Assembly: GCF_024298765.1 (NCBI RefSeq)
Contig: NZ_CP101210.1
Length of the DNA stretch: 64,000 nucleotides
Source of the DNA: Escherichia coli
Lineage (GTDB): Bacteria > Pseudomonadota > Gammaproteobacteria > Enterobacterales > Enterobacteriaceae
Direction: 5' to 3' (one strand)
The notes below the pieces were generated by a model, which was given only the letters and a program-made list of their open reading frames with translations, did not search any database and had not been told where the DNA came from. The position numbers and the translations under genes were made by a program. Positions 356-18,175 of the stretch are shown here, piece after piece. Position 1 is the stretch's first letter. The number at the start of each line of letters is the position of its first letter.

Positions 356-1306
356 ATGAGTATAAAAGAGCAAACGTTAATGACGCCTTACCTACAGTTT
401 GACCGCAACCAGTGGGCAGCTCTGCGTGATTCCGTACCTATGACGTTATCGGAAGATGAGATCGCCCGTCTCAAAGGTATTAATGAAGATCTCTCGTTAG
501 AAGAAGTTGCCGAGATCTATTTACCTCTATCACGTTTGCTGAACTTCTATATAAGCTCGAATCTGCGCCGTCAGGCAGTTCTGGAACAGTTTCTTGGTAC
601 CAACGGGCAACGCATTCCTTACATTATCAGTATTGCTGGTAGTGTCGCGGTGGGGAAAAGTACAACCGCCCGTGTATTGCAGGCGCTATTAAGCCGTTGG
701 CCGGAACATCGTCGTGTTGAACTGATCACTACAGATGGCTTCCTTCACCCTAATCAGGTTCTGAAAGAACGTGGTCTGATGAAGAAGAAAGGCTTCCCGG
801 AATCGTATGATATGCATCGCTTGGTGAAGTTTGTTTCCGATCTCAAATCCGGCGTGCCAAACGTTACAGCACCTGTTTACTCGCATCTTATTTATGATGT
901 GATCCCGGATGGAGATAAAACGGTTGTTCAGCCTGATATTTTAATTCTTGAAGGGTTAAATGTCTTACAGAGCGGGATGGATTATCCACACGATCCACAT
1001 CATGTATTTGTTTCTGATTTTGTCGATTTTTCGATATATGTTGATGCACCGGAAGACTTACTTCAGACGTGGTATATCAACCGTTTCCTGAAATTCCGCG
1101 AAGGGGCTTTTACAGACCCGGATTCCTATTTTCATAACTACGCGAAATTAACTAAAGAAGAAGCGATTAATACTGCCATGACGTTGTGGAAAGAGATCAA
1201 CTGGCTGAACTTAAAGCAAAATATTCTACCTACTCGCGAGCGCGCCAGTTTAATCCTAACGAAAAGTGCTAATCATGCGGTAGAAGAGGTCAGACTACGC
1301 AAATAA
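356..1306 (+). CDS. coaA: Pantothenate kinase (316 aa)
   Basis: ORF 200..1306 contains [20 protein letters not shown]...; P-loop GSVAVGKST. Start moved to the ATG that gives the 316-aa K-12-length protein. Confidence 0.93.
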
Positions 1307-1308
1307 TT

Positions 1309-1343
1309 TTCAGGGGAGCTAATGCTCCCCTATCTTATTTTTC
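1309..1343. terminator. Bidirectional intrinsic terminator between convergent coaA and birA
   Basis: Perfect inverted repeat GGGGAGC-TAAT-GCTCCCC (1313-1330) followed by TATCTTATTTTT; also T/A-rich on the opposite strand. Confidence 0.6.
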
Positions 1344-2300
1344 CGCACTACGCAGGGATATTTCACCGCCCATCCAGGGTTTTATTATTCCATCCTGCTC
1401 AAGCAATAAAGCGCCCTGTTTGTCTATTCCACGTGAAATGCCAAATATTTCTTTATCACCAATGATAAGTTTCACTGGGCGATTAATAAAATTATCCAGC
1501 TTTTCCCAGCGCGAAAGATAAGGTGCCAATCCTTCTTGCTCGAAGAGTTCCAGCGCCGCGCGTAATTCACGTATGAGCATGGCCGCCAACGTATTACGAT
1601 CGAGATTGATTCCCGCTTCCTGCAGCGTGATCCACCCTTGATTAACGACACTCTCTTCAACACGACGCATTGCCATGTTGATCCCGGCTCCAATGACTAT
1701 TTGCGCCGCATCGCCGGTTTTGCCAGTTAGCTCCACAAGAATGCCTGCCAGCTTGCGATCCTGCAGATAGAGGTCATTAGGCCATTTAACACGAACTTTA
1801 TCTGCACCCAGCTTGCGTAATACTTCCGCCATCACGATACCGATAACCAGACTTAAACCAATCGCCGCCGCCGGGCCTTGTTCCAGACGCCAGAACATCG
1901 ACAAATATAAGTTTGCGCCAAAAGGCGAAAACCATTTCCGCCCCCGGCGACCACGGCCAGCCTGCTGGTATTCTGCAACACAGGCATCGCCCGATTTAAG
2001 CTCTCCGATACGATCAAGAAGGTACTGATTCGTGGAGTCAATAACGGGCAGCACAGTTACACTACCGCCATCCAGCTGACCCAATATCTGTTCAGCATTA
2101 AGTAACTGGATAGGCTCAGGCAGGCTGTATCCTTTACCCGGAACGGTAAAGACATCAACGCCCCAGTCACGCAGTGTCTGAATGTGTTTATTAATAGCCG
2201 CCCGGCTCATTCCTAACGTTTCACCCAACTGCTCACCAGAGTGAAATTCGCCATTCGCTAACAGCGCGATTAATTTCAGCGGAACGGTATTATCCTTCAT
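1335..2300 (-). CDS. birA: Biotin--[acetyl-CoA-carboxylase] ligase and bio operon repressor (321 aa)
   Basis: ORF of K-12 length; N-terminal HTH ([27 protein letters not shown]...) and GRGRRGRKW biotin-binding loop. Confidence 0.95.
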
Positions 2301-3325
2301 GAAATCGTCTCCACTGCGCTAACTTCACCTGATGCACCAATAAAGCGAACTTCAGGCTCAAGCCAGACATTAAATTTTTCACCCACTTTTTGTCTTACAT
2401 GATGTGCCAGTTGCACCACATCTTCGCTTTTTGCATTGTCTTCATTAATGAGGACTAACGCCTGTTGACGGTGCACCGCAGCACCACCCATTTGCATCCC
2501 TTTTAGCTGGCACTGATCGATAAGCCAACCTGCTGCCAGTTTTACTGAACCATCCGCCTGGGGATAATTTGGTGCTGTTGGAAATTGTGCCAGTAATGCT
2601 TTAGCCGTTTCGGCAGATACAACAGGGTTTTTGAAGAAACTACCGGCATTGCCATTCACTTTTGGATCAGGGAGTTTGGTGGTGCGCATATGACACACCG
2701 CATTAAATACTTGCTGTGGCGTTACGGTTGTAGGATCCAGACGAGTTAAGTCACCATACGTTAGTACAGGTTGCCACTCTTTTGGCAGACGCAGACCTAC
2801 GGCTACAATGGCGAAGCGGTCCTGGTATTCATGTTTAAAAATACTGTCGCGATAGCCAAAACGGCACTCTTTGGCAGTTAAGCGCACTAGCTTGCCTGTC
2901 GCCAGTTCAACACAGTCAACATAAGCGCAAACTCGCTGTAATTCTACGCCATAAGCACCAATATTCTGGATAGGTGATGAGCCGACACAACCAGGAATTA
3001 ATGCCAGATTTTCCAGACCAGGCATACCTTCCTGCAAAGTGTATTTTACCAGGCGATGCCAGTTTTCTCCGGCTCCTACATGTAAATACCACGCATCAGG
3101 TTCATCATGAATTTCGATACCTTTAATCCGGTTGATGATCACCGTGCCGCGATAGTCTTCCAGAAAAAGTACATTACTTCCTTCACCCAGAATAAGAACG
3201 GGTTGTCCTTCTGCGGTTGCATGCTGCCAGGCATTGAGTAGTTGTTGTTCGTCTTCGGCACATACAATGTGCTGAGCATTATGATCAATGCCAAATGTGT
3301 TCCAGGGTTTTAAGGAGTGGTTCAT
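2297..3325 (-). CDS. murB: UDP-N-acetylenolpyruvoylglucosamine reductase (342 aa)
   Basis: ORF of expected length ([21 protein letters not shown]...); 4-nt ATGA overlap with birA start. Confidence 0.95.
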
Positions 3326-3414
3326 AGCTGCTTTCCTGATGCAAAAACGAGGCTAGTTTACCGTATCTGCGGGGGGATGGCTTGTAGATATGATGACAGG
3401 AAGAGTTTGTAGAA

Positions 3415-3450
3415 ACGCAAAAAGGCCCAGTCTTCCGACCGAGCCTTCTG
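3415..3450 (-). terminator. rrnB T1-like terminator hairpin downstream of 5S rRNA
   Basis: Minus-strand transcript reads GGCUCGGUC-GGAA-GACUGGGCC followed by UUUUUG, a near copy of the canonical rrnB T1 stem-loop. Confidence 0.6.
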
Positions 3451-3459
3451 CTTAATTTG

Positions 3460-3579
3460 ATGCCTGGCAGTTCCCTACTCTCGCATGGGGAGACCCCACA
3501 CTACCATCAGCGCTACGGCGTTTCACTTCTGAGTTCGGCATGGGGTCAGGTGGGACCACCGCGCTAAGGCCGCCAGGCA
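3460..3579 (-). rRNA. rrfB: 5S ribosomal RNA
   Basis: 120-nt match to E. coli 5S rRNA (reverse complement ATGCCTGGCAGTTCCCTACTCTCGCATGGGGAGACCCCACACTACCATC...GCCGCCAGGCA), with a couple of single-base variants relative to my remembered sequence. Confidence 0.95.
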
Positions 3580-3677
3580 AATTCTGTTTTATCAACACGT
3601 CTCGTTATGACCTGTCGATTTAATCTGTATCAGGCTGAAAATCTTCTCTCTATCCGCCAAAACACCTTCGGCGTTGT

Positions 3678-6584
<2,907 letters not shown>

Positions 6585-6767
6585 CACAACCCGAAGATGT
6601 TTCACTTCAGAGTTGCGAAAATTTGAGAGACTCACGAACAACTTTCGTTGTTCAGTGTTTCAATTTTCAGCTTGATCCAGATTTTTAAAGAGCAAATATC
6701 TCAAACATCACCCGAAGATGAGTTTTGAGATATTAAGGCAGGTGACTTTCACTCACAAACCAGCAAG

Positions 6768-6843
6768 TGGCGTCCCCTAGGGGATTCGAACCCCTGTTAC
6801 CGCCGTGAAAGGGCGGTGTCCTGGGCCTCTAGACGAAGGGGAC
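6768..6843 (-). tRNA. gltT: tRNA-Glu (anticodon UUC) in the 16S-23S spacer
   Basis: Reverse complement is GTCCCCTTCGTCTAGAGGCCCAGGACACCGCCCTTTCACGGCGGTAACAGGGGTTCGAATCCCCTAGGGGACGCCA, 76 nt with encoded CCA. Confidence 0.95.
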
Positions 6844-6928
6844 GTATCAGTCTGCTTCGCAAGACGCCTTGCTTTTCACTTTCTATCAGACAATCTGTGT
6901 GAGCACTGCAAAGAACGCTTCTTTAAGG

Positions 6929-8843: not shown

Positions 8844-9701
8844 TCAGTCTAAAACTGCCAGTTTTTCGAGCGTTTCGAAGCCGTAACGCTGTAAAACGGG
8901 CAATAATTGTTCAGCTTCTGGCGTCATTGCCATACAAAAGGCAATATTCGCATCGGCAGATTTTGCATCCGGGGCTTCATGTTCTAACAGCCAGGCCGTT
9001 CGGCGAGCAATCGCTGCGCCAGAATCCACCAGCCGGGTTCCCTCTGGCAGCACCTGTAACAGTTCTTCTTGTAGTAGAGGGAAATGGGTACACCCCAGTA
9101 CAACGGTATCTGGCGGCTCTTTCATTCTTAACCACGGACGCAAGATACGTTTTAGCGCATCCAGAGAAACATCTTCGCCATGCAGCTTCGCTTCAGCCAA
9201 CTCGACCATCTCTGCCGAGCCCAGCATTTCTATCTGGCATTCATTAGCGAAACGCGCGATCAGCTCATGAGTATAAGAACGTTTAACAGTTCCGCGGGTT
9301 GCCAGTAATCCGACAATGCCATTTGCCGTCAGACGTGCAGCAGGTTTAATCGCCGGCACGACACCAACAACCGGGAAGTCGAACTTTTCGCGTAATGCAG
9401 GAAGTGAAACGGTACTGGCGGTGTTGCAAGCGACCACAGCCAGCGCAAGGGGATAACGTTCTTGCACTGCGGTGACAATTGCCACCACTCGCTCAACAAT
9501 AAACTCTTCGCTTTTTTCGCCATACGGGAAAGCGACGTTATCGAAAGCATAAATGTAATGGAGATCCGGTAAGAGATGCCGGATCTCGTCATAGACCGAC
9601 AACCCACCGACGCCGGAGTCAAACACCAGCACGGTGGGACGTGGTTCAGAAGGTGTAGCTGCCAGACAAGGTGTATTCCCGTCCTGCAGTTTGGTAGCCA
9701 T
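8844..9701 (-). CDS. murI: Glutamate racemase (285 aa)
   Basis: ORF contains [37 protein letters not shown]...; start set at MATKLQ. Start overlaps the btuB 3' end by 56 bp. Confidence 0.92.
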
Positions 9702-11490
9702 AGACTGTCTCATAATCTTTGTCGAACAGGTTGGCTATTTTACCACGAACTGTCAGATGAGAGGTGACCGGATACGCAACCGCAAGATCCCACAAGCTCA
9801 CACCGCCCATTTTGACTGACTTATAGGGCCAGGATGAGTAATCCGAATCGTATCGCGATCCCAGATATTGATAAGTTACACCCCAGTCAAAATCGAACAC
9901 TTGCCAGTCGAGCTGATACTTTACTTGCTGTTTAGGACGACGTTCTAACGGTTTGTCAGTTAAGGCATTTCTGGCATCCGTATAATCGTAGCTAACGGTA
10001 TGCACCAGCGGTCCAGTCTCGAAGTTTGCTGTAGATTCAATACCCTTAATATGCACCTTTGCGTCGTTATAATATCTTTCGCAGTTTTGGGTACAATTAA
10101 TCATATCACTGATATCATTACGGTATCCTGAAATTCGCCAGTTCACTCCTGCTGTTAAGCCTTCAAACGCCCCTTCCCACTGTTTGCTTTTTTCTGGATC
10201 GAGATTCGGATTACCTTTGTAACCATATAACTGACCGAGATTTGGCGCTTTAAATGCAGTTCCATAGGAAGCGATAAAGCGATAGCCTTCAATAAACTCC
10301 CATCCCACACTGGATTGCCATGTTGTGTGGCGATCAAATTGCGAGTTGTCGTCATTACGCACCGCGCCTTCTAACGTAAAATCGCCAACTTTTTGTAATC
10401 CAGTCAGATAAATCCCCGTGTTACGCTGATCGTAACCTTTTGGCAAATATCCAGTTCCAGGAGTAGTGGATTGTTTTTGCCAGTCGATACCAGCTCCAAC
10501 ATCACCGTGACCGACTGTGACGCTATTTGTCCACTGGAGATTGTATTGTTTCATCTCATCCAGGTTAGCTGATGCGTCATAGCGTCCATAATGTGGATCG
10601 TAGTTGTAATCTTTACTATGGCTATAACTGGAAACAAGTTGAGATTGCAGTGTTTCGCCAGCGTAGCGAAGACCCGCATCCCAGCTTTGACTATAAAGTT
10701 TTCGTGTATCAATCAGCGGAGAACCAGGAGAGTACCAGGCGTCATATTTAGTTCGGTTATCATAGCCGTAGCCACGAACAAATCCGCTCCACGTATCAGA
10801 GAAGTTATGTTCAAGTTTGCCGTAGAGTGTTTTACTTAAAAAACCGTCTCTGTCTGACTGTGGCTGCATCCCAGTGTTGCCATAGGCAACGACATCAAAT
10901 CCCCTGGTATAGGCATAATCACCAAGAAGTGTTACTTGAGTATTTTCACCAATTTGTTGCTGAGTGGAAATATCGTAATTTTGATAACTATTACTTCCCC
11001 ATCCGGCTGAAATTTCAGTGCCAGTATTCTCACGGGAGGTAATAATATTTATCACACCGCCAATGGCATCTGAGCCATAAATCGCTGAACGTGGCCCACG
11101 GATATATTCGATACGCTGCACCAAAGCGATCGGAAACTGGCTCAGGTCAGCCGATCCGCTAACACCTGCTAAATTCAGACGTACACCATCAATTAAAACC
11201 AGTGCATGGTTAGAGTTCGTGCCTCGAATAAAAATAGTTGAGAGCTGACCTTCTCCTCCATTTTGTGCAATTGCCACACCAGGCAAACGGCGGAGAACAT
11301 CATTTACAGAGGAAACTTGCCATCGTTCAATATCCTCACGTGTCACGACAGTGACAGGAGCAAGCACGGCACTTAATGGTTCCTGAAAACGGTTAGCAGT
11401 AACAACGAGAGTATCCGGGCTGGTATCCTGTGCCCAAGCAGAAAAAGCTGTGACAGAACACGCCGTCAGCAGCGAAGCTTTTTTAATCAT
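9646..11490 (-). CDS. btuB: TonB-dependent vitamin B12 / colicin E / phage BF23 outer-membrane receptor (614 aa); a diverged allele
   Basis: ORF 9646..11535 contains [35 protein letters not shown]... (signal peptide, TonB box DTLVVTA) and the C-terminal beta-barrel ending SGSYTF. Start set at MIKKAS (ATG 11488-11490). Confidence 0.93.
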
Positions 11491-11731
11491 TGTAAAGCAT
11501 CCACAATAGAAGAAGGATGCCGCAGGTTTCATCAATATTACGCGATGATGAGAACCAGATGCGACGTTAGCCGGCAGGTCTTCGGGCTTGGAGGGGTATC
11601 TAAGATACTAAGAGATGATGACTTCCCACCGGATGGCAGTGTCCGCATAACGCAATCATCGCACCTTTCCTTACCGCTGCGCGTCAGCTCCAGATTCGCA
11701 CTGGATTCCCTATTAACTCACAGGACCGGCA
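11491..11731 (-). ncRNA. Adenosylcobalamin riboswitch (btuB 5' leader)
   Basis: Minus-strand sequence GCCGGTCCTGTGAGTTAATAGGGAATCCAGTGCGAATCTGGAGCTGACGCGCAGCGGTAAGGAAAGGTGCGATGATTGCGTTATGCGGACACTGCCATCCGGTGGGAAGTCATC... matches the well-studied btuB leader. The 5' end is approximate. Confidence 0.85.
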
Positions 11732-11858
11732 AGTGGATGCTACAGGTTGTAACAAGTTACTGTCCAGACGTAGCTCACAAATAGGAATTCATCAAGATCT
11801 GGACATCTGATGAGCAATCCCTACAATCGCCGCGTACTTTAATTTTTCAGGATACATC

Positions 11859-12959
11859 ATGACCCCCGAACACCTTCCAACAGAACAGTATGAAGCGCAG
11901 TTAGCCGAAAAAGTGGTACGTTTGCAAAGTATGATGGCACCGTTTTCTGACCTGGTTCCGGAAGTGTTTCGCTCGCCGGTCAGTCATTATCGGATGCGTG
12001 CGGAGTTCCGCATCTGGCACGATGGCGATGACCTGTACCACATCATTTTCGATCAACAAACCAAAAGTCGTATCCGTGTGGATAGCTTCCCCGCCGCCAG
12101 TGAACTTATCAACCAGTTGATGACGGCGATGATTGCGGGTGTGCGTAATAATCCCATTCTGCGCCACAAGTTGTTCCAGATTGATTACCTCACTACGCTA
12201 AGCAATCAAGCGGTTGTTTCCTTGCTGTACCATAAAAAGCTGGATGATGAGTGGCGTCAGCAGGCGGAAGCCCTGCGCGATGCACTGCGCGCGCAGAATC
12301 TGAATGTGCATCTGATTGGTCGGGCAACGAAAACCAAAATCGAGCTGGACCAGGATTACATCGATGAACGTCTGCCGGTCGCAGGGAAAGAGATGATCTA
12401 CCGTCAGGTAGAAAACAGCTTTACCCAGCCGAACGCGGCGATGAATATTCAGATGCTGGAATGGGCGCTGGACGTAACCAAAGGCTCAAAAGGCGATTTG
12501 CTGGAGCTGTACTGCGGCAACGGTAACTTTTCATTAGCACTGGCGCGCAATTTTGATCGGGTATTAGCCACCGAAATCGCTAAGCCGTCGGTCGCTGCCG
12601 CGCAATACAACATTGCCGCTAACCATATTGATAACGTACAAATTATTCGTATGGCGGCAGAAGAATTTACTCAGGCGATGAATGGCGTACGCGAGTTTAA
12701 CCGCCTGCAAGGAATCGACTTAAAGAGTTATCAGTGCGAAACCATTTTTGTCGACCCACCGCGCAGCGGTCTGGACAGTGAAACCGAGAAAATGGTGCAG
12801 GCGTATCCACGTATTCTGTATATCTCCTGCAATCCGGAAACGTTATGCAAGAATCTGGAAACATTAAGCCAGACGCACAAGGTCGAACGTCTGGCTCTGT
12901 TTGATCAGTTCCCCTACACGCACCATATGGAGTGCGGCGTATTACTGACCGCGAAGTAA
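11859..12959 (+). CDS. trmA: tRNA (uracil54-C5)-methyltransferase (366 aa)
   Basis: Full-length [26 protein letters not shown]...; SAM-dependent methyltransferase motifs ([15 protein letters not shown]; catalytic Cys in YISCNPETL). Confidence 0.95.
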
Positions 12960-16848: not shown

Positions 16849-16891
16849 TTTTATTCTACAGGCCCACAGCAAGAGAGCCTGATAGTAACGG

Positions 16892-18175
16892 TTACTCAAT
16901 CCGATCTTTGACAATAAAGAAGTAACACAGCGCCCCGGTGAACGTCACACAGGCCGCGATAACCAGCGCCAGATTAAACGAGTGTGTGGTATCCACGACC
17001 CAACCGGTTACGATCGGAGCAAAGGAAGCAAAAACAAAACTGCCAAAGTTTTGAATCCCGGCGATGGAAGCCACTTTTGTTTCTGACACCATCACCTGCA
17101 CCAGCCCCCATGCAGATGTTCCCGCGAAATGCACGCAGAACAGCGCCATTGAGATAAACGCTACCGCCTGGGCTGGCGAGGAAGATTGCACGACCAGCAA
17201 CGTGCCTAATGCCGACATCATCAAACCGCAGACAATCGCCGTTTTACGCGTCTTCGCCAGGTCATAGCCTTTTTTCGCCAGCCGATCGACAACAATACCG
17301 TTAACCCACATCCCGACCGCCGCCGCGAGGAAAGGAATTGCCGCCACCCAACCGGTTTTCGCCAGACTGAAACCTTGTTCGGCCTGCAAATAACCGGGTA
17401 ACCACGCGATGTAGAGCCAACCGGTATAATTGACGCCAGAGAAACCTAAAATCATCCCCCAGGTTGTCCGATGCTTAAACAGCGCCAGCCACTCGCTAAA
17501 TTGTAACTGTGGACGCGGTTTAACCGGCGCGGAGAGATATGTCCGTTCTTCCTCGGTCAGGACAAACTGCGCCCGGTTGCGATACCACGCGTACCAACAG
17601 ATCCCAACCAGAATCCCTGCTACGCCGATGATGACAAACATCGTCCGCCAGCCCCATGCCAGTTGCATCAATACAAGAGCAGGAGGCGCGATAGCCTGAC
17701 CGATAACGGTAGATGAGTTAAAAATCCCCAGCGCCGTGCCGCGTTCTTTTTGCGCATACCAGTCGGTGATCGACTTTACTCCCGCAGGCATAAATGGCGC
17801 TTCGCCAATACCCAGACCGATACGCATTAAAATAAAGTGGCTAAAAGAATTAACCATTCCTGTTAATGCCTGCATTAATGACCAGAATATTAAGCCTGCG
17901 CCTAACACTATTCGTGGGCCAAAGCGGTCTAGCAAAATACCGGAAGGAAGTTGTGAAAAACCATAAGACAGAGAAAATGCAGAAAGCAAAACACCAAACT
18001 CGGTAGCGGATAATCCTAACTCGCCACGAATTGCTTCACCTGCCACGCTCAATGACGAACGGTCGAGAAAATTAACGATCCCCGCCATAAATAATAAAAC
18101 CAGGGTCACTGTCTGAATACGACGAATCCGTTGCGGTTTATTACCCGCAACACTGGTTGACACATCAACGTCCAT
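16892..18175 (-). CDS. MFS transporter, anion:cation symporter-like (hexuronate/aldonate/sugar-acid type), 427 aa; accessory relative to K-12
   Basis: 12-TM-type hydrophobic ORF with MFS signature region (GILLDRFGPRIVLGAGLIFWSL...RIGLGIGEAPFMPAG); resembles GudP/DgoT/ExuT-type sugar-acid permeases. Confidence 0.8.
   Translation of the reverse strand: MDVDVSTSVAGNKPQRIRRIQTVTLVLLFMAGIVNFLDRSSLSVAGEAIRGELGLSATEFGVLLSAFSLSYGFSQLPSGILLDRFGPRIVLGAGLIFWSLMQALTGMVNSFSHFILMRIGLGIGEAPFMPAGVKSITDWYAQKERGTALGIFNSSTVIGQAIAPPALVLMQLAWGWRTMFVIIGVAGILVGICWYAWYRNRAQFVLTEEERTYLSAPVKPRPQLQFSEWLALFKHRTTWGMILGFSGVNYTGWLYIAWLPGYLQAEQGFSLAKTGWVAAIPFLAAAVGMWVNGIVVDRLAKKGYDLAKTRKTAIVCGLMMSALGTLLVVQSSSPAQAVAFISMALFCVHFAGTSAWGLVQVMVSETKVASIAGIQNFGSFVFASFAPIVTGWVVDTTHSFNLALVIAACVTFTGALCYFFIVKDRIE

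Follow-up and report, generated by a model that had tools for sequence, protein, structure and literature searches.

The chromosomal btuB gene in a stretch of 64,000 nucleotides from Escherichia coli (contig NZ_CP101210.1, assembly GCF_024298765.1; the whole stretch is referred to here as the window) is, judged from its sequence, a recombination mosaic of two layers. Nearly all of its middle part derives from a divergent, low-GC allele class, named class II in the following, and a short patch from a further btuB lineage seems to lie nested within it, bringing two cysteines to the tip of extracellular loop L8. BtuB is the receptor for E-group colicins and phage BF23, and the gene in the window is a variant of this well-known transporter. 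It is considered rather probable that it encodes, as such a two-layer mosaic, an active vitamin B12 transporter whose L8 tip is stapled by a disulfide bond and whose recognition by phages and colicins is altered.

The first layer was delimited by a sliding comparison (100 nt) with a K-12-type strain over 14 kb. Within the tract, identity was uniformly low (0.69-0.81), and it returned abruptly to 0.98-1.0 on both sides. Elsewhere in the 14 kb it was 98-100%, save for a few differences caused by accessory insertions and the rRNA spacer. Dense mismatches to the K-12 type were first met at window position 11385 and last at 9814. The nucleotide divergence from K-12 btuB was approx. 22% over the whole gene and approx. 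25% within gene nt 106-1677. Synonymous sites were saturated (proportion of synonymous differences, pS, 0.77), the non-synonymous divergence (dN) was 0.12 in the tract and the ratio of non-synonymous to synonymous divergence (dN/dS) of the whole gene was approx. 0.065. The tract has a GC content of 44.7% and a GC content at third codon positions (GC3) of 37.6%, compared to 50.2% and 51.0% for K-12 btuB and a GC content of 50-52% in the flanks. Because of the saturated synonymous divergence, the shifted GC3 and the native flanks with 98-100% identity, the middle approx. 1.6 kb of btuB is, judged from the sequence, a sharply bounded recombinational replacement by foreign DNA.

Both ends of the gene are native. 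The Ton box DTLVVTA (window 11395-11415) lies within the native 5' end and is identical to that of K-12, with the 5' junction at approx. 11386-11403. The identity of this end is not simple conservation, as a second, island-borne btuB copy (L005, see below) is only 75-77% identical over the same stretch. The last 56 nt of btuB overlap the start of murI and the 3' junction lies at approx. 9758-9813; over the native 3' end the island copy is 85-90% identical. The junctions at gene nt 106 and 1677 were common to all chromosomal class II alleles examined. A first-pass annotation of the window, made from its letters without database searches, had proposed to look for mosaic breakpoints, and it was these sharp junctions that were found. 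It had also described the riboswitch leader as almost unchanged, which holds with 99-100% identity to the K-12-type strain. The conclusion drawn from this, namely selection on the receptor surface rather than on regulation, does not follow, as the leader is located outside the recombination tract: the crossover spared not only the riboswitch but also the codons for the signal peptide and the 15 mature residues after it, as well as the final 56 codons.

The second layer emerged from the comparison with the sister chromosomal allele L003. The two alleles differ at 80 positions, 50 of which fall into gene nt 1233-1473 (54 up to nt 1487), many of them synonymous. The synonymous divergence (dS) between window and L003 was 0.96 in the patch (codons 411-496) and still 0.68 without the loop codons, compared to 0.059 in the rest of the tract. 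Around the loop there are 20 synonymous differences between these two alleles, which are 99% identical elsewhere. Exactly the same patch was carried by the haplotype WP_032218895.1 (loci L023 and L024) on an L003-like backbone with different flanking alleles. Given this other backbone, the patch edges could be placed at nt 1207-1232 and nt 1474-1481, and the patch must have moved by recombination at least once. At the L8 tip, the sister alleles and the island copy read NYDPHTL or NYNPHTL, while the window reads NCTQNCE. The L8 patch is, by this comparison, best seen as an import from a further btuB lineage, distinct from the source of the class II tract. A smaller block of clustered differences in the plug domain is common to the window and haplotype L023 and is not present in L003 or L004. 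It indicates repeated intragenic recombination among class II alleles.

The 241-nt patch was found with 100% identity in 78 out of 5,426 complete E. coli genomes (approx. 1.4%), and no match fell into the band between 90 and 99%. Since 78 independent complete genomes share the patch unchanged, the cysteine pair is no sequencing artefact. Artefact and pseudogene explanations were rejected on the basis of this identity and of the intact, gapless open reading frame (ORF). The carriers were mostly poultry-associated, avian pathogenic E. coli and related strains, and included human isolates. Approximately 68 of the 78-79 carriers had identical flanks (trmA WP_001696384.1, murI WP_001696387.1 and murB WP_001016655.1) with 0-1 mismatches over the stretches compared. 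The upstream 5-kb flanks contained indels in some strains, and genetic backgrounds were separated by protein accessions and by the flank on the downstream side. Where the patch came from was searched for in two ways. A protein search with a 101-residue L8 segment gave 19 candidates, all of which were either this allele again or fragments of ordinary BtuB. The motif CxxxCxxYYNx5IKG, as a degenerate DNA pattern, was run against 100,044 GTDB species-representative genomes and JGI metagenomes and revealed no BtuB with this motif; its four genome and ten metagenome matches were all due to chance (stop codons or unrelated proteins).

Table 1. Features of the btuB region in window coordinates.
Feature	Coordinates	Strand	Basis or remark
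btuB coding sequence, 614 residues, intact	9646..11490	-	ORF with ATG start; full-length match to PDB 1NQE
Native 5' end of btuB, encoding the signal peptide and mature residues 1-15	11386..11490	-	differs from the K-12-type strain at only 5 scattered positions
Class II tract in place of the native sequence, gene nt 106-1677 (codons 36-559)	9814..11385	-	approx. 75% identical to K-12-type btuB, low GC
Further mosaic block of smaller size, within the plug domain (gene nt 222-337)	11154..11269	-	12 clustered differences; informative-site table
Putative nested recombination patch with the Cys loop, gene nt 1233-1473 (241 nt)	10018..10258	-	outer limits nt 1207-1481, window 10010-10284 (275 bp)
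Extracellular loop L8 between strands 15 and 16, mature 442-458	10057..10107	-	loop range from PMC7360065
L8 tip C446-T-Q-N-C450, replacing K-12 Y446-D447-D448-H449-T450	10081..10095	-	read from the sequence
Native 3' end of btuB, last 168 nt (56 codons)	9646..9813	-	1 mismatch to the K-12 type
Cobalamin riboswitch, btuB leader, native E. coli sequence	11556..11745	-	Rfam RF00174, 87.8 bits, E = 1.4e-21
murI (glutamate racemase), native downstream neighbour overlapping the btuB end	8844..9701	-	ORF; annotation of the identical locus L002; 98-100% identity
trmA, native divergent upstream neighbour	11859..12959	+	ORF and annotation of an identical E. coli locus

In loop L8, 11 of the 17 residues differ from K-12, which has DLIDYDDHTLKYYNEGKAR at this site. 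The cysteine codons are TGT at 10093-10095 (mature C446) and TGC at 10081-10083 (mature C450). The mature K-12 BtuB is free of cysteines, while the mature protein of the window has two. The pair is no product of chance: among 120 listed cluster representatives of Enterobacteriaceae BtuB, cysteines at L8 occurred only in the window allele's own cluster; 117 had no cysteine after precursor residue 25 and two had a single one at the extreme C-terminus. The first-pass annotation had picked out this rewritten loop, taken it to be extracellular and called its cysteine pair unusual for BtuB, all of which agrees with the present data. Its loop peptide was recovered by translation of 10045-10107 on the minus strand, although the 19 residues correspond to 10051-10107 and the range was two codons too long. 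The K-12 loop that it had quoted was exact, and the loop of the window is not identical to it. Mature residues 446-452 are the most variable seven-residue segment of the whole protein in 32 enterobacterial BtuBs, which fits selection on the surface.

Around L8, strand boundaries were taken from an AlphaFold2 model built on an alignment of 32 sequences, with strands assigned by DSSP. In this model, strands 449-466 and 473-492 flank the L8 turn with a local confidence (predicted local distance difference test, pLDDT) of approx. 74-78. C446 and C450, which share one extracellular loop and are placed around a hairpin turn, could pair. In molecular dynamics simulations of K-12 BtuB, the L8 residues in contact with cobalamin were Y446, D447, D448 and H449, and L8 was among the most mobile loops and closed over the ligand (PMC7360065). 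As far as cited there, a partial deletion of L8 lowered cobalamin binding and transport but did not abolish them (PMC7360065 citing Fuller-Schaefer & Kadner 2005). For Yersinia enterocolitica, sensitivity to a T5-like phage correlates with the variation of one BtuB loop (PMC8624392). The motif of that loop (DY..D..T) looks like L8, the equivalence being read from the motif without an alignment.

The protein aligned with K-12 BtuB (PDB 1NQE) end to end without gaps at 83% identity, its residues 21-614 pairing with residues 1-594 of chain A. It reached 1078.4 bits with the NCBIfam equivalog NF007926 (cut-off 836) and 874.3 bits with TIGR01779 (cut-off 599.7). Pfam PF07715 and PF00593 were recorded for P0001, the near-identical representative of its cluster. 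Its C-terminus ...SGSYTF keeps the terminal YTF with an aromatic last residue. The protein is already contained in RefSeq as WP_001318168.1 under the generic name BtuB.

Compared to the K-12-type allele, 104 amino acids were substituted, so that the strong divergence noted in the first-pass annotation was borne out. The substitutions affected 17% of the residues in the plug, 15% in the barrel outside the long loops (strands and turns) and 28% in the long extracellular loops. The excess in the loops (odds ratio approx. 1.9, Fisher p = 0.01) came mostly from L8, and L11 had no substitutions. The expectation that changes would be concentrated in the external loops was not borne out: the loops do carry more substitutions, but plug and barrel are changed as well, and at the nucleotide level identity is uniform with 69-81% over gene nt 106-1677. 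All six residues of the Ca2+ aspartate cage (D179, Q191, D193, D195, D230 and D241) were conserved; we take this list to be that of Chimento et al. 2003 and the residues to be required for high-affinity cobalamin binding. The existence of a Ca2+ cage in BtuB is described in PMC7360065. The residues of L4, L7, L9, L10 and L11 that contacted cobalamin in the simulations (PMC7360065) were unchanged except for F404Y, and in L2 only Y178F was found among the substitutions at contact positions. The dN/dS indicates that selection on the gene has apparently been strongly purifying. In view of this, of the intact Ton box, Ca2+ cage, other contact residues and C-terminal signal, and of the residual transport after partial L8 deletion, the BtuB of the window probably still binds and transports cobalamin in a TonB-dependent manner.

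Concerning the origin of the class II lineage, the distribution of the core tract was followed in the same 5,426 genomes. An identity of at least 99% was found in 79 genomes, 95-99% in five and 90-95% in seven; the alleles of the latter two groups were chromosomal and had the same junctions. In 69 further genomes the match was approx. 89.7% and belonged to a second btuB copy that is not allelic. The remaining genomes contained K-12-type btuB, approx. 78% identical to the window over the whole gene. The second copy has its own cobalamin riboswitch and adjoins iha, and these 69 complete genomes are mostly non-O157 Shiga toxin-producing E. coli (STEC). The iha/btuB context has been described for the LAA island (for Locus of Adhesion and Autoaggregation) of STEC negative for the locus of enterocyte effacement (PMC6920203). 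The island copy L005 (NZ_CP075665.1, strain STEC2018-553, 1148-3245) is a full-length btuB with a divergent signal peptide (MIKKYWFLMVYSVTAFSVWA) and approx. 75% nucleotide identity to the resident btuB. With 88.9% nucleotide and 90.5% amino acid identity it is the nearest relative of the tract outside the chromosomal class II alleles.

In a neighbour-joining protein tree, the window allele, P0002 with the Cys-free sisters and the LAA island copy formed one clade apart from the K-12 type and Salmonella. Amino acid identities were 82.5% between window allele and K-12 BtuB, 84.1% between window allele and Salmonella BtuB and 87.1% between K-12 and Salmonella BtuB. No closer relative was found among 5.8 billion proteins. 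A plasmid donor was rejected, since a distant search of the plasmid collection gave only ordinary btuB with 66-75% identity. Because no closer relative was contained in either the proteins or the plasmids, the class II donor would be an unsampled lineage, about as deep as the split of Escherichia and Salmonella, or one that has long resided on islands. The tract may plausibly have arrived by gene conversion from an island copy.

Several other btuB-like sequences were met in these searches. P0008 and P0012, 74-77% identical to the window protein and one of them named E. coli by its source, have quite different signal peptides (MKTQILILLTISATIFTAKA and MKKKALIFLMASTAIFPAKA). The tree places both with K-12-type BtuB, and they are presumably additional paralogues. 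Locus L026 (NZ_CP168949.1, strain IH5, 2988-3632; hit H90) contains a fragment of 633 nt with 99.1% identity to the class II tract, surrounded by pseudogene pieces of tssH, gspD/E, an integrase and IS66. Either the remains of an island have been scrambled here or the assembly is chimeric, and the hit was not informative. Hit H89 was an ordinary chromosomal btuB and likewise not informative.

The course of events that would lead to the allele can be pictured as follows. Homologous recombination replaced codons 36-559, i.e. nearly all of the mature plug and barrel, with low-GC class II DNA, and the promoter, riboswitch, signal peptide and btuB-murI overlap stayed native. A patch of 241-275 bp from a further btuB lineage would then have replaced the L8 hairpin. 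The introduced C446 and C450 (i and i+4) would flank a three-residue beta-turn, and the periplasmic Dsb system probably oxidises the pair to a disulfide. This bond would staple the tip of L8 and stiffen a loop that is normally mobile and closes over the ligand. At the same time, the surface of BtuB would lose two acidic side chains and an aromatic one at its most variable spot. The expected outcome is an altered recognition by BtuB-dependent phages (T5-like relatives of BF23) and possibly by E-group colicins, and the affinity for B12 or the dynamics of loop closing might shift somewhat.

Several points weigh against this picture. The donor of neither layer was found in the protein, plasmid, species-representative and metagenome searches, and for this reason the import of the patch rests on parsimony in relation to two sister lineages. 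The AlphaFold2 model is poor overall (mean pLDDT 48.6) and gives no reliable three-dimensional basis for the disulfide. The loss of Y446, D447, D448 and H449 could lower the affinity for B12. There is no direct evidence that L8 of E. coli contacts colicin R-domains or phage receptor-binding proteins. Finally, the carriers belong mostly to one clonal background, and the frequency of the allele may reflect hitch-hiking with a poultry-associated clone rather than selection on BtuB.

The origin of the loop can also be pictured without recombination. The model of the first-pass annotation amounts to a fast-evolving, vertically inherited btuB whose loop acquired its new sequence on the spot, through point mutations favoured by positive selection from phages or colicins. 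Such a process would suit the L8 tip as the most variable site of the family, the proportion of non-synonymous differences of 0.29 in the loop between window and L003, and the approx. 1.9-fold higher number of substitutions in loops compared to the rest of the protein. It does not account for a divergence that is uniform over 1.57 kb and mostly synonymous (pS 0.77, dN/dS 0.065), for sharp junctions to flanks with 98-100% identity and a GC3 shifted by 13 points, for the 20 linked synonymous differences around the loop (dS 0.68 vs 0.059) or for an identical patch on two different backbones. Moreover, no intermediates between NYDPHTL and NCTQNCE were seen, and the patch had no matches at 90-99% identity. 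Rewriting in place is therefore extremely improbable. The pattern is that of an allelic replacement with a nested patch, and what remains of the earlier proposal is selection on the receptor, plausible in view of the variable L8 tip, with recombination instead of mutation as its mechanism. An alternative that concerns function is a crippled receptor, kept for resistance to phages and colicins where uptake of B12 is dispensable. btuB is non-essential, and null mutants are a classical route to resistance against colicin E and BF23; furthermore, all four L8 residues that contacted cobalamin in the simulations are replaced. With an ORF that is intact and gapless against 1NQE, a dN/dS of 0.065, conserved Ton box, Ca2+ cage, other contact residues and C-terminal YTF, a retained native riboswitch and an identical sequence in 78 genomes without decay, a loss of function is nevertheless quite improbable.

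The foreign segment could as well be a neutral passenger, fixed by chance in a successful poultry-associated clone, with two cysteines that, bonded or not, have no functional effect. The patch, however, recurs on another backbone whose flanks differ (L023, L024) and falls exactly on the most variable surface site of the family, and two cysteines in a Cys-free outer-membrane protein would hardly leave folding unaffected if they were not paired. Although the identical flanking alleles of most carriers (approx. 68 of 78-79) point to one expanding clone, this explanation is regarded as unlikely. Somewhat better placed, yet still tentative, is the proposal that the tract arose by gene conversion within the genome of an ancestor, from a btuB of the type located on LAA or LPA islands, and not by direct import between species. 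It is a sub-mechanism compatible with the two-layer mosaic rather than a competitor. The 69 E. coli genomes with a class II-related second btuB and its own riboswitch beside iha, the position of the island copy as nearest relative (88.9% nucleotide, 90.5% amino acid identity) and a low GC content that fits a long residence on island DNA are in line with it. On the other hand, none of the island copies in the 5,426 genomes exceeded 90% identity, and a nucleotide divergence of approx. 10% means that the tract was not donated directly by the sampled island copy. Beyond the two-layer mosaic itself, it is conceivable, but speculative, that the L8 patch is a naturally circulating loop cassette, which comes from an unsampled enterobacterial lineage and passes from one btuB backbone to another by recombination of short tracts. 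Its disulfide-stapled receptor tip with fewer acidic residues would let E. coli escape BtuB-dependent phages, E colicins or both without the loss of B12 uptake. If this were true, btuB would be a receptor locus with several alleles kept in balance, to which paralogues from pathogenicity islands contribute in part.

The surroundings of btuB follow the standard E. coli arrangement with the order trmA, riboswitch, btuB and murI, and annotated E. coli loci with identical neighbours are on record. The mechanical ORF call places the btuB start 15 codons further upstream at a TTG at 11535 (window 11491-11535). The annotated ATG at 11490 (MIKKASLL...) is the RefSeq start and agrees with the signal peptide. 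Upstream of oxyR, at window approx. 16877-17490 and beyond, a major facilitator superfamily transporter gene and manD are present as in strain 104. In the K-12-type strain CAR, argH is directly adjacent there (identity 25-46%), which indicates an accessory insertion between argH and oxyR. In the rRNA operon downstream of murI (window approx. 6763-6876), the 16S-23S spacer is not of the same length as in the K-12-type strain, and a block there is only 24-81% identical. Carriers that are identical in other respects have either tRNA-Glu or tRNA-Ile and tRNA-Ala in this spacer (L020 vs L021).

BtuB is a model TonB-dependent transporter and the entry point for E-group colicins, colicin-based antimicrobials, B12-conjugate delivery and many T5-like phages that are candidates for therapy. 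The presence of this BtuB in approx. 1.4% of complete E. coli genomes could explain gaps in the host range of BtuB-dependent phages and bacteriocins. The allele also offers a natural experiment on the contribution of L8 to ligand capture, and it shows that a lineage carried elsewhere on virulence islands is able to overwrite the core gene of a receptor. For biophysical work, too, the cysteines are of importance, since spin-labelling of BtuB relies on the Cys-free wild type. A full-text literature search gave no description of this btuB dimorphism in E. coli.

Compared to K-12 BtuB (PDB 1NQE, 1NQH and 2GSK; UniProt P06129), the protein of the window has the same length of 614 residues, locus, Ton box, Ca2+ cage and architecture of plug and 22-stranded barrel. 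It differs in the 104 substitutions and in its L8 tip, which is CTQNC instead of YDDHT. With the island btuB of STEC (LAA/LPA) it shares the class II lineage, the low GC content and a cobalamin riboswitch. The island copy, however, is an extra paralogue beside iha with its own divergent signal peptide and C-terminus and a Cys-free L8 (EMINYNPHTLRYYNDGK), whereas the window copy is located at the native trmA-btuB-murI locus and has native ends. Close relatives are the Cys-free chromosomal class II alleles (for example WP_115724188.1 of strain ws5-3 and WP_047625314.1 of ECNB21-M121) with the same junctions and 97-100% identity outside the patches. Their L8 is EMINYDPHTLRYYNDGK, and they differ at 50 sites in the 241-nt patch and at 12 in the plug-domain block.

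Loop disulfides are found in other TonB-dependent transporters, namely C487-C494 in L7 of FepA as well as C318-C329 in L4 and C692-C698 in L11 of FhuA, and the disulfide loops of FhuA and FepA are part of the surfaces recognised by phages and colicins. The BtuB of the window resembles them in that a single surface loop of its 22-stranded TonB-dependent barrel contains two cysteines with only a few residues between them. The protein, the loop and the spacing (CxxxC) are different, and the disulfide of BtuB is a predicted one. In terms of its evolution, the locus resembles outer-membrane proteins of E. coli that serve as phage receptors, such as ompC, ompA and fhuA, in which alleles are replaced by recombination. 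With these it has in common a core locus, deeply divergent allele classes, sharp junctions, native flanks and a variability that peaks in surface loops. BtuB has been listed among the segmentally variable genes (PMC387263). Unlike the cases of ompC, ompA and fhuA, btuB shows a short patch of the size of a single loop that apparently moves between backbones.

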